Shown here piece after piece: positions 1 to 30,791 of a DNA stretch of 30,887 nucleotides. Each line of letters begins with the position of its first letter. Position 1 is the stretch's first letter. The stretch comes from Escherichia coli. Its GTDB lineage: Bacteria; Pseudomonadota; Gammaproteobacteria; Enterobacterales; Enterobacteriaceae. Position numbers and translations under genes: made by a program. Location: the NCBI RefSeq assembly GCF_003334785.1, contig NZ_QOWV01000027.1; one strand, written 5' to 3'. A model generated the notes under the pieces. The model was not told the origin of the DNA and did no database searches. It saw only the letters and a program-made list of their open reading frames with translations.

Positions 1-56
1 TTTCTCTTCAACCGAACCGGCTGTTTGTGTGAAGTGATTCACATCCGCCGTGTCGA

Positions 57-115
57 TGGAGGCGCATTATAGGGAGTTCTCCGCAGGCCGCAATAGAAAA
101 ATTGCAGAAAAATGA
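57..115 (-). promoter_or_regulatory. rRNA-operon P1-type sigma70 promoter with A/T-rich UP element, transcribing leftward out of the window (probably rrnE P1)
   Basis: Minus strand reads TTGCGG(-35, 88..93)-16 nt-TATAAT(-10, 66..71)-GCGCCTCC discriminator, followed by ATCGACACGG; nearly identical to the rrnB P1 core (AACTCCCTATAATGCGCCACCACTGACACGG). A/T-rich tract 94..115 upstream of -35 fits an UP element. GC-rich discriminator is typical of stringently controlled rRNA promoters. Confidence 0.7.
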
Positions 116-264
116 CTGACTGCTGCATTCCCCAGCAAAAGCCCGCTTTATACCTTTTTACGCACAGAGTTATCCACAATCATCAATGTAATTTCTGTAT
201 TTTGCCCACGGTAACCACAGTCAAAATTGTGATCACCATTGAAAGAGAAAAATTCGCGAGCGTT

Positions 265-280
265 GCGCAAACGTTTTCGT
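265..280 (+). promoter_or_regulatory. PurR operator (pur box) upstream of purH, adjacent to a TACAAT -10-like hexamer (281..286)
   Basis: GCGCAAACGTTTTCGT matches the PurR box consensus ACGCAAACGTTTTCNT; purHD is a known PurR regulon member. Confidence 0.6.
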
Positions 281-305
281 TACAATGCGGGCGAAAAATA
301 AGGAT

Positions 306-355
306 GCCCCGTTAGGGGCGTTAGCTGAGTTTTTCGCGAAAAATTCAGCTAACGC
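306..355 (+). repeat. Near-perfect 38-bp palindrome (19-bp arms, 318..355) plus overlapping GC hairpin (306..319) in the purH leader
   Basis: Left arm gcgttagctgagtttttcg versus reverse complement of right arm gcgttagctgaatttttcg: 18/19 match, the single mismatch is a G-U pair in RNA. gccccGTTAggggc lies immediately upstream. Confidence 0.5.
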
Positions 356-387
356 TCTCTGTAATAGTCAAATCCAGGGGATTTACC

Positions 388-1977
388 ATGCAACAACGTC
401 GTCCAGTCCGCCGCGCTCTGCTCAGTGTTTCTGACAAAGCCGGTATCGTCGAATTCGCCCAGGCACTTTCCGCACGCGGTGTGGAGCTGCTGTCTACAGG
501 GGGCACTGCCCGTCTGTTAGCAGAAAAAGGTCTGCCGGTAACCGAAGTTTCCGATTACACCGGTTTCCCGGAGATGATGGATGGACGCGTGAAGACCCTG
601 CATCCGAAAGTACATGGTGGCATTCTGGGCCGTCGCGGCCAGGACGATGCCATTATGGAAGAACATCAGATCCAGCCTATCGATATGGTGGTTGTTAACC
701 TGTATCCGTTCGCCCAGACCGTGGCCCGTGAAGGTTGCTCGCTGGAAGATGCGGTTGAGAACATCGATATCGGCGGCCCAACGATGGTGCGCTCCGCCGC
801 CAAGAACCATAAAGATGTCGCAATCGTGGTGAAGAGCAGCGACTATGACGCCATTATTAAAGAGATGGATGACAACGAAGGATCGCTGACGCTTGCAACC
901 CGTTTCGACCTCGCCATCAAAGCCTTCGAACACACTGCCGCCTACGACAGCATGATTGCCAACTACTTCGGCAGCATGGTTCCGGCTTACCACGGTGAAA
1001 GCAAAGAAGCCGCCGGTCGCTTCCCACGCACGCTGAACCTGAACTTCATTAAGAAGCTGGATATGCGTTACGGCGAGAACAGCCACCAGCAGGCTGCCTT
1101 CTATATAGAAGAGAATGTGAAAGAAGCCTCCGTTGCTACCGCAACCCAGGTTCAGGGTAAAGCCCTCTCTTATAACAACATCGCCGATACCGATGCGGCG
1201 CTGGAGTGCGTGAAAGAGTTCGCCGAGCCGGCATGTGTGATTGTGAAGCACGCCAACCCTTGCGGCGTGGCTATCGGCAATTCCATTCTTGATGCTTACG
1301 ATCGCGCGTACAAAACCGACCCAACCTCCGCATTCGGCGGCATCATTGCCTTTAACCGCGAGCTGGATGCGGAAACCGCACAGGCCATCATTTCTCGTCA
1401 GTTTGTCGAAGTGATTATTGCGCCGTCCGCCAGCGAAGAAGCCCTGAAAATCACCGCCGCCAAACAGAACGTACGCGTTCTGACCTGCGGTCAGTGGGGC
1501 GAGCGTGTTCCGGGCCTCGATTTCAAACGCGTGAACGGCGGTCTGCTGGTTCAGGATCGTGACCTGGGGATGGTCGGTGCGGAAGAACTGCGCGTGGTGA
1601 CCAAACGTCAGCCGAGCGAACAGGAACTGCGTGATGCGCTGTTCTGCTGGAAGGTGGCGAAGTTTGTGAAATCCAACGCTATCGTCTATGCCAAAAACAA
1701 TATGACTATCGGCATTGGCGCGGGCCAGATGAGCCGCGTGTACTCCGCAAAAATCGCCGGTATTAAAGCGGCCGATGAAGGCCTGGAAGTGAAAGGTTCC
1801 TCGATGGCTTCTGACGCGTTCTTCCCGTTCCGCGACGGTATTGATGCCGCCGCCGCTGCGGGCGTGACCTGCGTAATCCAGCCTGGCGGTTCTATCCGTG
1901 ATGACGAAGTGATTGCCGCCGCCGACGAGCACGGTATTGCGATGCTCTTCACCGACATGCGCCACTTCCGCCATTAA
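388..1977 (+). CDS. purH: Bifunctional AICAR transformylase / IMP cyclohydrolase
   Basis: 529 aa ORF, N-terminus [27 protein letters not shown] (MGS-like domain); ATG at 388 with AGGGGA Shine-Dalgarno 7 nt upstream; length identical to E. coli PurH. Confidence 0.97.
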
Positions 1978-1988
1978 TGGAGCAATAG

Positions 1989-3278
1989 ATGAAAGTATTA
2001 GTGATTGGTAACGGCGGGCGCGAGCACGCGCTGGCCTGGAAAGCGGTCCAGTCGCCGCTGGTTGAGACTGTTTTTGTTGCTCCGGGTAATGCAGGCACTG
2101 CACTGGAACCCGCGCTGCAAAACGTTGCTATTGGCGTGACCGATATCCCGGCGCTGTTGGATTTCGCACAAAACGAAAAGATTGATCTGACCATCGTCGG
2201 CCCGGAAGCGCCGCTGGTGAAAGGCGTGGTCGATACCTTCCGCGCCGCCGGGCTGAAAATCTTCGGCCCAACCGCAGGTGCGGCCCAACTGGAAGGCTCA
2301 AAAGCGTTTACCAAAGATTTCCTGGCCCGCCATAAGATCCCTACGGCGGAATACCAGAACTTCACCGAGGTAGAACCTGCGCTGGCGTATCTGCGTGAGA
2401 AAGGCGCGCCAATCGTCATTAAAGCGGACGGTCTGGCTGCCGGGAAAGGCGTTATCGTGGCGATGACGCTGGAAGAAGCGGAAGCGGCTGTTCACGATAT
2501 GCTGGCGGGCAACGCTTTTGGCGACGCGGGTCATCGCATCGTTATCGAAGAGTTCCTCGATGGCGAAGAAGCGAGCTTTATCGTGATGGTGGACGGCGAG
2601 CATGTGCTGCCGATGGCTACCAGCCAGGATCACAAACGCGTAGGCGATAAAGATACCGGACCAAACACCGGCGGGATGGGCGCTTACTCCCCCGCGCCGG
2701 TAGTAACCGATGACGTTCATCAGCGCACCATGGAACGTATTATCTGGCCAACCGTGAAAGGCATGGCGGCGGAAGGCAACACCTACACCGGTTTTCTCTA
2801 CGCGGGCCTGATGATCGACAAACAGGGCAATCCGAAGGTTATTGAATTTAACTGCCGCTTTGGCGATCCGGAAACCCAGCCGATTATGCTGCGCATGAAG
2901 TCCGATCTGGTTGAGCTCTGCCTGGCGGCCTGTGAAAGCAAACTGGACGAGAAAACGTCCGAGTGGGATGAACGCGCTTCTCTCGGCGTGGTGATGGCTG
3001 CGGGTGGATATCCGGGTGATTACCGCACCGGTGACGTGATCCACGGCCTGCCGCTGGAAGAAGTGGCAGGCGGCAAAGTGTTCCACGCGGGCACAAAACT
3101 GGCGGATGACGAGCAGGTAGTGACCAACGGCGGGCGCGTACTGTGCGTCACCGCGCTGGGTCATACCGTGGCAGAAGCGCAGAAACGCGCCTATGCCTTA
3201 ATGACCGATATCCACTGGGACGACTGCTTCTGCCGGAAAGATATCGGCTGGCGCGCTATCGAACGCGAGCAGAACTAA
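1989..3278 (+). CDS. purD: Phosphoribosylamine-glycine ligase (GAR synthetase)
   Basis: 429 aa, MKVLVIGNGGREHALAWKA N-terminus, ATP-grasp fold; 11 nt downstream of purH stop (operon). Confidence 0.97.
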   Translation: MKVLVIGNGGREHALAWKAVQSPLVETVFVAPGNAGTALEPALQNVAIGVTDIPALLDFAQNEKIDLTIVGPEAPLVKGVVDTFRAAGLKIFGPTAGAAQLEGSKAFTKDFLARHKIPTAEYQNFTEVEPALAYLREKGAPIVIKADGLAAGKGVIVAMTLEEAEAAVHDMLAGNAFGDAGHRIVIEEFLDGEEASFIVMVDGEHVLPMATSQDHKRVGDKDTGPNTGGMGAYSPAPVVTDDVHQRTMERIIWPTVKGMAAEGNTYTGFLYAGLMIDKQGNPKVIEFNCRFGDPETQPIMLRMKSDLVELCLAACESKLDEKTSEWDERASLGVVMAAGGYPGDYRTGDVIHGLPLEEVAGGKVFHAGTKLADDEQVVTNGGRVLCVTALGHTVAEAQKRAYALMTDIHWDDCFCRKDIGWRAIEREQN

Positions 3279-11622: not shown

Positions 11623-11648
11623 GCCCCATTTGCGGGGCTAATTTCTTG
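11623..11648 (+). terminator. Possible weak terminator / hairpin after rsd
   Basis: GCCCC-ATTTGC-GGGGC followed by TAATTTCTT; short stem and interrupted U-tract. Confidence 0.3.
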
Positions 11649-11740
11649 TCGGAGTGCCTTAACTGGCTGAGACCGTTTATTCGGGATCCGCGGAACCTGA
11701 TCAGGCTAATACCTGCGAAGGGAACAAGAGTTAATCTGCT
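11640..11740 (+). ncRNA. TPP (thiamine pyrophosphate) riboswitch, thi-box aptamer in the thiC leader
   Basis: Contains the conserved thi-box elements GGAGUGCC ... CUGAGA ... GGAACCUGAUCAGGCUAAUACCUGCGAAGGGAA; located 80-180 nt upstream of thiC ATG; followed by a second hairpin ATCGCC-CCTGC-GGCGAT (11748..11764) plausibly part of the expression platform. Aptamer boundaries approximate. Confidence 0.9.
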
Positions 11741-17432: not shown

Positions 17433-17600
17433 GAAAATAAGAACACATGTTCTCATCTTCCAGGATGCAGCAGACTGAAGAAATTCAGACATCCCGCAAC
17501 CTGCGATTATCGCAAGGTCAAGGCAAAGTCCGGTAATGGCGTTCTGAATACCAGAGATAATTCTCTGGCGAAACCCACCTTAAGGTGGGTTTTGTTATTT
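17433..17600 (+). ncRNA. sroH: Candidate small RNA (SroH-like) in the thiH/htrC convergent spacer, ending at an intrinsic terminator
   Basis: Promoter as above plus terminator AACCCACC-UUAA-GGUGGGUU followed by UUGUUAUUUU (17572..17600) define an approximately 165-nt non-coding transcript; an sRNA named SroH of about this size has been reported between htrC and thiH in E. coli K-12 (recalled from literature, exact coordinates not verified). Confidence 0.55.
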
Positions 17601-26924: not shown

Positions 26925-26955
26925 AAAAAGGCTGGTGACTAAAAAGTCACCAGCC
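26925..26955 (-). terminator. rplL-rpoB intercistronic transcriptional attenuator
   Basis: Minus RNA: GGCUGGUGACU-UUUUA-GUCACCAGCC followed by UUUUUGC, about 40-70 nt after rplL stop; matches the classical partial terminator that sets the r-protein:RNAP ratio. Confidence 0.8.
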
Positions 26956-26994
26956 ATCAGCCTGATTTCTCAGGCTGCAACCGGAAGGGTTGGC

Positions 26995-30654: not shown

Positions 30655-30734
30655 CGCCCTCAACAGAGCCTGTCTCAGCAATGATTATGACAAAGAAAAT
30701 CACTGATGAGCCAGGTTCTGGTACGAAAGCGTGC

Positions 30735-30761
30735 AAAAAGGGCATCAAATGATGCCCTTTT
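30735..30761 (-). terminator. tufB intrinsic terminator
   Basis: Minus RNA AAAGGGCAUC-AUUU-GAUGCCCUUUUU about 30 nt after the tufB stop; symmetric A/T flanks. Confidence 0.8.
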
Positions 30762-30791
30762 AGTGCGCATTGCGTCAAATGTTATCGGCAA

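Follow-up and report, generated by a model that had tools for sequence, protein, structure and literature searches.

We describe here an RNA stem-loop in the 5' leader of the purHD operon of Escherichia coli, which appears in the DNA as a near-perfect palindrome at positions 318-355 (plus strand) of a stretch of 30,887 nucleotides (contig NZ_QOWV01000027.1), hereafter called the window. In all probability the palindrome is the DNA image of a sense-strand stem-loop, termed P2, whose family extends over Enterobacteriaceae, Erwiniaceae, Yersiniaceae and Pectobacteriaceae. This reading of the sequences is favoured because the two arms covary, because they contain G.U pairs that are valid on the sense strand only, and because the structure is conserved across genera. 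Among the options that a first-pass annotation of this DNA had listed for the palindrome, a hairpin lying within the 5' untranslated region (UTR) is therefore the one we retain, and P2 would most likely tune translation or stability of the purHD mRNA.

The palindrome reads GCGTTAGCTGAGTTTTTCG|CGAAAAATTCAGCTAACGC, two arms of 19 bases each, with G329 opposite T344 as the sole non-complementary position, and this mismatch becomes a G.U pair once the plus strand is RNA. The first-pass annotation had described the repeat in these terms and had placed it between the PurR box and the purH Shine-Dalgarno sequence (SD); we confirm both, with PurR box and -10 element at 265-286 and the SD at 376-381. 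Its view that the repeat is too long for chance is also borne out. The palindrome is the longest inverted repeat of the window (arm 19 versus 14 for the runner-up); in 60 dinucleotide-preserving shuffles of the window the longest arm averages 11.4 and never exceeds 15, and the analytic expectation for such a repeat is about 6e-5 per window. A repeat finder gives the arms as 318-338 and 335-355, overlapping and with 95% complementarity. RNA folding around 290-390 had been proposed as a check, and the fold of 290-395 reaches -36.3 kcal/mol (z = -4.0), a value equalled by 0 of 200 shuffles. The small hairpin GCCCC-GTTA-GGGGC at 306-319, termed P1, is present as noted earlier, but to call it mutually exclusive with the palindrome is an overstatement: both share only the two nucleotides G318 and C319, and P1 can coexist with a P2 that lacks two base pairs (320-353). 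A longer competition, over 5 nucleotides, does exist, in which GGGGC pairs either with GCCCC or with GCUCU. The elements of this part of the leader are:

306-319 (+): P1, GCCCC-GUUA-GGGGC, a 5-bp GC hairpin, -11.5 kcal/mol when evaluated within the 294-410 leader
315-319 (+): GGGGC, the 3' strand of P1, with GCUCU (354-358) as alternative partner, which makes P2 longer by 5 pairs
318-355 (+): P2, the stem-loop encoded by the palindrome, with a core helix of 320-334 with 339-353, the loop CGCG (335-338) and one G329.U344 wobble
354-360 (+): GCUCUCU, a conserved pyrimidine tail directly 3' of P2, partner for the P2 extension, boxA-like and off consensus

The P2 of E. coli counts 15-17 core pairs, and 20 pairs with the 5-pair extension.

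The comparative evidence comes from a protein-anchored scan with one genome per species, which yielded 80 purH loci and a P2-type hairpin in 36 of their leaders. In a model-guided alignment of 26 sequences, 92.4% of the cells are paired and 9 of 21 pairs are changed on both sides. None of 500 shuffles reaches either value, and pairing is 37-54% when the partner is slid by 1-3 columns. The 36 apex-trimmed sequences, with 18 pairs, are paired in 91.6% of the cells and show double changes at 8 pairs, in 37 such cells against 11.4 expected; here too the values are reached by 0 of 500 shuffles, and the slid controls give 34-49%. Stem position 5 occurs as GC, CG, UA and UG, and position 10 as G.U, A-U and G-C. 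Wobble cells (G.U or U.G, valid on the purH-sense strand only) number 100, compared with 14 cells of A.C or C.A. The same asymmetry is seen within the genus Escherichia, where the variants are G302A, C319T and C335T: both changes within helices are C to U opposite G, so that pairing is kept only in the sense-strand RNA.

A comparison across Enterobacteriaceae purH leaders, which the first-pass annotation had recommended, shows the repeat arms to be kept in all 36 leaders and in four families. We take the genera Escherichia, Citrobacter, Kluyvera, Enterobacter, Cedecea, Pluralibacter, Phytobacter and others to be Enterobacteriaceae, Pantoea and Erwinia to be Erwiniaceae, Yersinia, Serratia and Rahnella to be Yersiniaceae, and Brenneria to belong to the Pectobacteriaceae. 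Positions conserved in at least 90% of the leaders are GGG..GTTA.CTGA in the left arm and T.A..TAACGCTCT in the right arm, hence GGG..GUUA.CUGA / U.A..UAACGCUCU at the base of the RNA stem, and the CGCTCT tail is likewise at least 90% conserved. The apex between the arms ranges from none (E. coli) up to about 65 nt; accordingly the bases of the two arms are 35 to 99 nt apart, depending on the species, and the stem covers 36-100 nt. Since the apex is this variable elsewhere, the E. coli palindrome is a truncated and perfected form of a longer ancestral stem, with a helix of 17-19 bp and a 4-nt loop. The distance from the inferred transcription start site (TSS) to the base of P2 is 23-27 nt in 36 of 36 leaders, and a P1-like hairpin folds directly 5' of P2 in 32 of the 36. 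Covariance models built from these leaders give exactly one plus-strand match per locus, always in the purH leader; in the 30.9-kb window they find the P2 site only, plus its mirror image on the other strand. Mangrovibacter, Tatumella, Photorhabdus and Edwardsiella have long, unrelated-looking hairpins at the same leader position, and no hairpin was found in the Rosenbergiella, Budvicia, V. salinus and Pasteurellaceae leaders examined.

In Pantoea, Yersinia, Serratia and Rahnella (loci L022, L025, L026, L028, L029, L031, L032, L034, L035 and L036) the apex is a sub-hairpin around CUCUAUAUAGAG, (Y)CUCUAUAUAGAGAR, which is duplicated in Y. thracica and Serratia; the Enterobacteriaceae are without it.

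Within E. coli the element is nearly uniform. The 301 bases around it are 100% identical to many complete genomes, and of 5426 complete E. coli genomes 5420 have the 63-nt stretch 300-362, each at a single locus, with at least 99% identity in 5333 and 95-99% in 87. Where two places per genome are counted, the palindrome has been matched on both its strands. In E. coli O157:H7, 18 positions deviate from the window, every one of them within 141-248 of the rrnE-purH spacer; from 249 up to and including the start codon the sequence is the same. In the RefSeq records examined, the purH coding sequence is the only feature annotated in this region. What phage and plasmid collections match is nothing but pieces of this chromosomal locus under a wrong label, among them Salmonella (92-93.5% identity) and Citrobacter freundii (92%). 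Together with the single locus per genome, this leads us to reject a repeat or mobile element (REP/BIME, ERIC, MITE).

The remaining features of the region are:

265-280 (+): PUR box GCGCAAACGTTTTCGT, the PurR operator in the purHD promoter, recognised by sequence, with AAACGTTT at 268-275
281-293 (+): -10 hexamer TACAAT (281-286) and GC-rich discriminator GCGGGCG (287-293), a conserved promoter layout
294-305 (+): A-rich, single-stranded 5' leader segment AAAAAUAAGGAU, unpaired in all predicted folds, with an AAGGAUG motif
370-384 (+): local hairpin AAAUCC-AGG-GGAUUU, which half-covers the SD AGGGGA (376-381)
388-1977 (+): purH coding sequence, 529 aa, ATG at 388, after the RefSeq annotation of identical DNA
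1989-3278 (+): purD, after purH

The PurR site of purH-purD is listed as ACGAAAACGTTTGCGC, on the other strand, by Cho et al. (PMC3159470). PurR box, TA[CA]AAT and a GC-rich stretch follow one another with fixed spacing in all Enterobacterales leaders examined. Because the PUR box, TACAAT and the GC-rich discriminator directly succeed one another with conserved spacing, we infer a transcription start at about 293/294, which would place the palindrome inside a 5' UTR of about 94 nt.

Some further observations concern this promoter and the start of the transcript. A GC-rich stretch is kept at the place of the discriminator (287-293) in Enterobacterales, Vibrio and Aeromonas leaders; promoters under stringent control, the adjacent rrnE P1 among them, are built with such a discriminator. 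At 291-299 and 336-344 the 9 nucleotides GCGAAAAAT are directly repeated (pair I4, an inverted pair, in the repeat finder). The inferred beginning of the purH transcript is in this way a copy of the apical portion of P2's right arm and could contend with it for the left arm (UUUUUCGC, 330-337); conservation of this repeat in other genera is only partial. A mini open reading frame, AUG CCC CGU UAG, is present at 304-315 inside P1, preceded by AAGGA without a spacer. We discard it as a functional upstream frame, given that the SD spacing is unusable and that its length varies between genera. Between the upstream region of rrnE P1 and the purH promoter there is a perfect consensus DnaA box, TTATCCACA, at 170-178 (+). 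All 33 Enterobacterales loci checked have a DnaA box on this strand upstream of purH (TTATCCACA in 32, TTATACACA in one), as against none of 4 loci from Vibrio, Grimontia, Aliivibrio and Aeromonas.

The palindrome could in principle also act as DNA, either as an operator for a dimeric protein (RbsR, PurR, Cra or PhoP) or as a cruciform tied to the divergent rrnE promoter; the first-pass annotation had raised a dimeric-protein operator and an element related to the divergent rrn promoter region. The DNA itself is after all a near-perfect palindrome, and its outer GCTGA...TCAGC resembles Cra half-sites. In addition, RbsR is reported to repress purHD besides PurR, as pointed to by a review (PMC10912719), and PhoP is also listed as a regulator. 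However, half-site spacing ranges from 35 to 99 nt among species, which a dimeric operator does not tolerate, and G.U-type asymmetries are 7 times commoner than A.C. The centre of the palindrome, TTTCGCGAAA, is moreover the reverse of AAACGTTT; operators of the LacI family (PurR, RbsR, Cra) are palindromes of 16-20 bp with a central CG in AAnCGnTT and fixed spacing, and a centre of opposite polarity does not fit them. The sequence AAACGTTT has also been attributed to RbsR (PMC5601083), and it sits in the PurR box, outside the palindrome, so that an RbsR operator at the palindrome is rejected as well. As to rrnE, the left end of the window carries on the minus strand the rrnE leader and the P1 promoter, TTGCGG-17-TATAAT-GCGCCTCC-A, with its start at position 57. 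The palindrome lies about 280 bp upstream of this start and downstream of the purH -10 element, and the same kind of hairpin family occurs in Vibrio leaders, at loci whose contig runs on for all of the 1.5 kb taken upstream of purH. Taken together, a role as a DNA element is highly improbable.

If P2 acts as RNA, the folds of the leader suggest a way in which it might do so. The model that we tentatively place first regards P2 as a cis-acting post-transcriptional scaffold, in which competition between CCCC (307-310), GGGG (315-318), CUCU (355-358) and the SD GGGG (377-380) would set ribosome access. During transcription, P1 (CCCC:GGGG) and the P2 core would form first and the SD would be held only in the weak local hairpin 370-384, a state that would permit translation. 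Once the SD is transcribed, P2 could zip up by 5 further pairs (GGGGC:GCUCU), P1 would open, and the freed CCCC could pair with the SD and block translation. The balance of both states would set ribosome loading on purH and thereby the lifetime of the mRNA; a factor recognising the invariant P2 base could shift this balance. We rate this competition higher than three rivals weighed below (a passive stabiliser, an RNA operator, an RNase III site); a DNA-level element and a site for Nus factors receive very little weight each.

In the E. coli leader, state A (P1, P2 core and local SD hairpin) has -33.2 kcal/mol and state B (extended P2 and CCCC:SD) -33.3 kcal/mol, which makes them nearly isoenergetic. 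The minimum free energy fold of 294-400 is a variant of state B (-35.6 kcal/mol), in which the SD GGGG pairs with CCCC (307-310) instead of lying in the local hairpin, and folds of successive prefixes show state A (P1 and P2) until the SD is transcribed. For 20 Enterobacteriaceae, the RNAalifold consensus computed with no structure supplied is state B (extended P2 and CCCC with the SD GGGG). P1, the P2 extension and CCCC:SD can each form in 96-97.5% of cells (P1 in 96%). The pairs of the extension are possible in 91-97% of cells in the 36 leaders, except for pair 21:54 (80%), and in 97% overall in the 20 Enterobacteriaceae.

Several points weigh against this competition as a switch. Since neither P1 nor the P2 extension nor CCCC:SD covaries significantly, the comparative data cannot choose among these three short helices. 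Pairing of the SD with the 5' tract varies in the ensemble from 0.00 to 0.75 among species and is about 0 in E. coli when the fold takes in 20 nt of the coding sequence. The leaders of Serratia, Rahnella, Brenneria and one metagenome-assembled genome lack P1. In the modelled folds a pyrimidine tract is left free in both states, so that the ON state is not clean, and the invariance of GUUA/UAAC, U7-A and A9-U amid covarying neighbours is unexplained by the model. The start of the purH transcript is placed by promoter architecture, and the model names no trigger; signal and trans-acting factor stay hypothetical.

Known systems close to this model are the leader hairpins of pyrC and pyrD in E. 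coli, in which the SD is sequestered depending on the transcription start site. As in purH, a PurR-regulated nucleotide-biosynthesis gene has a leader able to fold with its SD paired, which in purH would put translational control on top of the repressor. The pyrC/pyrD hairpin contains the SD and the 5' end, whereas the purH P2 does not include the SD, and sequestration would use the separate CCCC tract.

One alternative is an inert helix that ties up most of the leader, insulates the ribosome-binding site against misfolding, hinders the 5'-end-dependent RNase E in reaching downstream sites and so lengthens the life of the purHD mRNA without any switching. Such a role would agree with the fact that the helix is kept and the sequence of the apex is free, with an apex length from 0 to about 65 nt, and with the fixed distance of 23-27 nt from the inferred 5' end. 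The unrelated-looking hairpins of Mangrovibacter, Tatumella, Photorhabdus and Edwardsiella and a separate covarying family in Vibrionaceae, Aeromonas and Shewanella, all at the same place, speak for it too, as does an E. coli stem without an internal loop that looks like a ligand pocket. It leaves unaccounted for, however, that six pairs of the lower stem together with GGG and CGCUCU are (near-)invariant over four families while adjacent pairs covary, which a steric role does not need. In addition, about 12 unpaired nucleotides at the 5' end leave this end itself unprotected, and the hairpin is absent from Rosenbergiella, Budvicia, V. salinus and Pasteurellaceae. Stem-loops of the ompA type are known to stabilise mRNA as obstacles to RNase E and need to be at the very 5' end. 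The purH leader is like them in having a stable structure near the 5' end of the mRNA at a position conserved relative to the (inferred) start, but its hairpins begin about 13 nt (P1) and about 25 nt (P2) from the inferred 5' end, and a single-stranded tail remains. We therefore regard a purely passive element as unlikely.

In another reading the invariant lower stem would bind a trans-acting factor that acts on purHD after transcription, as a repressor or an activator; it could be a novel RNA-binding protein, PurH itself, or CsrA with one contact at AAGGAUG and another at the SD. Base-specific invariance within a helix (GUUA.CUGA / U.A..UAAC) is in line with such an RNA operator, mismatches being tolerated at stem positions 6 and 8, and PurH is among the E. 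coli RNA-binding proteins recovered by orthogonal organic phase separation (OOPS) in a 2026 preprint. With regard to CsrA, a target would have at least two conserved GGA motifs, with one of them at the SD, and the motif obtained by systematic evolution of ligands by exponential enrichment (SELEX) is RUACARGGAUGU. The sequence AAUAAGGAUGC, around the mini-ORF at 304-315, resembles it, and GGA motifs are present at 302-304 and, within the SD, at 379-381. Yet natural E. coli strains with G302A, and several other genera, have lost the upstream GGA, and the searchable literature ties no CsrA to purH regulation, so that CsrA is a doubtful candidate. A fully Watson-Crick E. coli stem, furthermore, offers little for sequence-specific readout, and the proposed binding is deduced from sequence. 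An RNA operator thus receives a minor share of our confidence.

A long helix may also be a substrate of RNase III, which would cut the extended, near-perfect helix of 20-21 bp, sever the 5' end and change how the purHD mRNA decays or is translated, in the way known from the pnp and rnc leaders. With GGGGC:GCUCU the E. coli helix reaches 20 pairs, the approximate length that the enzyme uses; in other genera the whole stem has 25-40 pairs with few mismatches, and the extension pairs are conserved as potential pairs. As a long, near-perfect stem-loop early in the 5' UTR, with two turns or more when extended, P2 is similar to the pnp and rnc leaders. It differs from them in that the lower stem is invariant in sequence, which RNase III does not require, and in that the cleavage sites covered from PMC5371410 include one in the purH-rrsE spacer that is not in the palindrome: MG1655 position 4207874 corresponds to about 46 in the window and falls in the rrnE leader. 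The lack of the palindrome among the sites covered is a weak negative, purH being repressed by PurR in rich medium. Cleavage by RNase III seems rather improbable to us. The listed RNase III-dependent site itself (annotated as purH-rrsE intergenic, minus strand) lies some 11 nt downstream of where rrnE P1 transcription starts, a long way from -115, the classical site at which 16S precursors are processed.

In a last RNA reading, the hairpin with the CGCUCU behind it would form a module resembling boxB-boxA and recruit NusB/NusE, in the manner of suhB or the rrn leaders. The tail CGCUCUUA of Pantoea equals the boxA of lambda, GCUCUUUA of Serratia and Rahnella equals the rrn boxA core, and the hairpin precedes the tail as it does in the rrn leaders. 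The likeness to the modules of lambda nut, rrn leaders and suhB thus consists in a hairpin directly before CGCUCU and in some genera that match the boxA core. The gamma-proteobacterial consensus of boxA is GYTCTTTAANA, and a C4T/T6C double mutant abolishes the suhB boxA (PMC5725501). Measured against this consensus, GCTCTCTGTAA of E. coli deviates at three positions (6, 8 and 9); the C at position 6 is one of the two changes of the double mutant, and we reject the tail as a boxA in E. coli. The accessible text and supplementary lists of PMC5725501 do not name purH. Conservation of CGCUCU is, moreover, explained by its pairing with GGGGCG. Recruitment of Nus factors is therefore very improbable.

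Other known kinds of element do not describe the leader either. No plus-strand terminator is found at P2 in the scan; the stem is followed by CUCUCUGUAAU, without a U-tract, so that an intrinsic terminator and the classical attenuator considered in the first-pass annotation are not upheld, and the Term-seq sites covered from PMC7815308 include no purH 3' end. On the minus strand, P1 (306-319) followed by AUCCUUAUUUUUC scores as intrinsic-terminator-like, and its U-rich tail is not conserved in other genera. Pairing of Spot 42 with CUCUGUA was considered by hand comparison and dismissed, as it covers 7 nt only and the tail is not conserved outside Enterobacteriaceae. A 9-mer match to 16S rRNA, AGCUAACGC, is at chance level by estimate, and mimicry of this RNA is set aside.

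With Rfam 15, the sole match over the element in region 1-800 at E<=10 is a chance hit to mir-725 (23.8 bits versus a gathering threshold of 76), and at the gathering threshold no match is found at the purH leader in the whole window. In 14 related loci at E<=0.1 the leader is clear except for a sub-threshold match of mir-4716 (35.4 bits versus a gathering threshold of 76) in the hairpin of Y. thracica. Elsewhere in the window, Rfam at gathering reports a TPP riboswitch (11640-11740, +), sroH (17433-17593, +) and P26 (26929-26990, -). Further palindromes with arms of 13-14 nt lie at 30734-30763, at 26928-26957 (overlapping the P26 match) and at 17569-17594 (overlapping the sroH match). Sub-threshold matches of Ysr197 (Yersinia small RNA 197) cover the rrn leader in the window (26-85, -) and in loci L025 (165-421, -) and L035 (56-301, -), which suggests that the Ysr197 model largely describes a fragment of the rrn leader.

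In other bacteria the cis-regulatory RNA found most often upstream of purH is the ZTP riboswitch (pfl motif). The purH leader described here resembles it as a conserved structured RNA in the purH 5' leader. However, pfl and all other Rfam families are unmatched in the leaders of E. coli, Pantoea, Serratia, Yersinia, Vibrio, Aeromonas and Shewanella. The ZTP riboswitch is a pseudoknot of two subdomains, whereas here a long hairpin accompanies a small one, and in E. coli there is no internal loop that could hold a ligand. Invariant unpaired or non-canonical nucleotides, which a riboswitch would retain in all its members as a ligand pocket, are not seen in E. coli, where P2 is fully paired and the mismatches that other genera have at stem positions 6 and 8 are Watson-Crick pairs. 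Sensing of ZMP or of 10-formyl-tetrahydrofolate (10-formyl-THF) in this pathway is known at the RNA level (review PMC10912719).

The Vibrionaceae and their relatives have a hairpin of their own at this place. We find this second type in 14 loci: ten Vibrionaceae (Vibrio, Aliivibrio, Photobacterium, Grimontia), two Aeromonas, one Shewanella, and another Vibrio that only the model picks up. It sits between PurR box/-10 and the purH SD and has the consensus GGGUAUUUnCCAAA...UUUGGnAAAUAUCC. In its alignment (A6, model R3), 87% of the cells are paired and 9 of 16 pairs are changed on both sides, values that 0 of 500 shuffles reach, and no Rfam family matches it. V. salinus is without this hairpin, and the form of V. 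albus is truncated. The coordinates, each within its own locus, include:

L048: 1417-1477, second-type hairpin
L049: 1387-1469, second-type hairpin
L050: 1394-1475, second-type hairpin
L052: 1374-1469, second-type hairpin
L054: 1376-1477, second-type hairpin
L057: 1408-1477, second-type hairpin
L074: 1373-1433, second-type hairpin
L078: 1399-1475, second-type hairpin
and others

Both types share their place and the GGG/AGG...YCY base; in both, the lower stem is conserved yet has mismatches that recur, and the apex is free. They differ in sequence consensus. The covariance models of Enterobacterales and of Vibrio do not find each other's type; homology is suggestive by hand alignment, and with no cross-match between the models we do not claim common descent. 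That both types converge in position and design suggests that gamma-proteobacteria may well depend functionally on having a long hairpin in the purH leader, and a parallel family in Vibrionales, Aeromonadales and Shewanella suggests that the feature is general in this class. An improbable and speculative extension would make the purH-leader hairpin and its counterpart in Vibrio, Aeromonas and Shewanella the RNA half of a new purine/one-carbon sensor, in which, for example, PurH or another factor would bind the invariant lower stem in answer to ZMP/AICAR (5-aminoimidazole-4-carboxamide ribonucleotide) or 10-formyl-THF. ZTP was reportedly first proposed as an alarmone in gamma-proteobacteria, and we know of no ZTP receptor in these organisms. 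If true, such a sensor would fill in gamma-proteobacteria the regulatory niche that the ZTP riboswitch has in other phyla.

The purHD-leader stem-loop is strongly conserved and, as far as we could determine, undescribed, since neither Rfam nor the RefSeq annotation examined nor any paper within reach contains it. The purHD operon is a textbook case of PurR regulation, yet about 60% of its leader is conserved, covarying RNA structure. If the element merely stabilises the mRNA, it is an ordinary leader element that is still worth annotating, because it affects engineering of the purH 5' UTR. If it is regulatory, it would be an easily mutated handle on the enteric response to ZMP or folate stress. 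And if it controls translation or decay of purHD, it would add a post-transcriptional layer at the AICAR-consuming step, one that is missing from current models of enteric purine synthesis.

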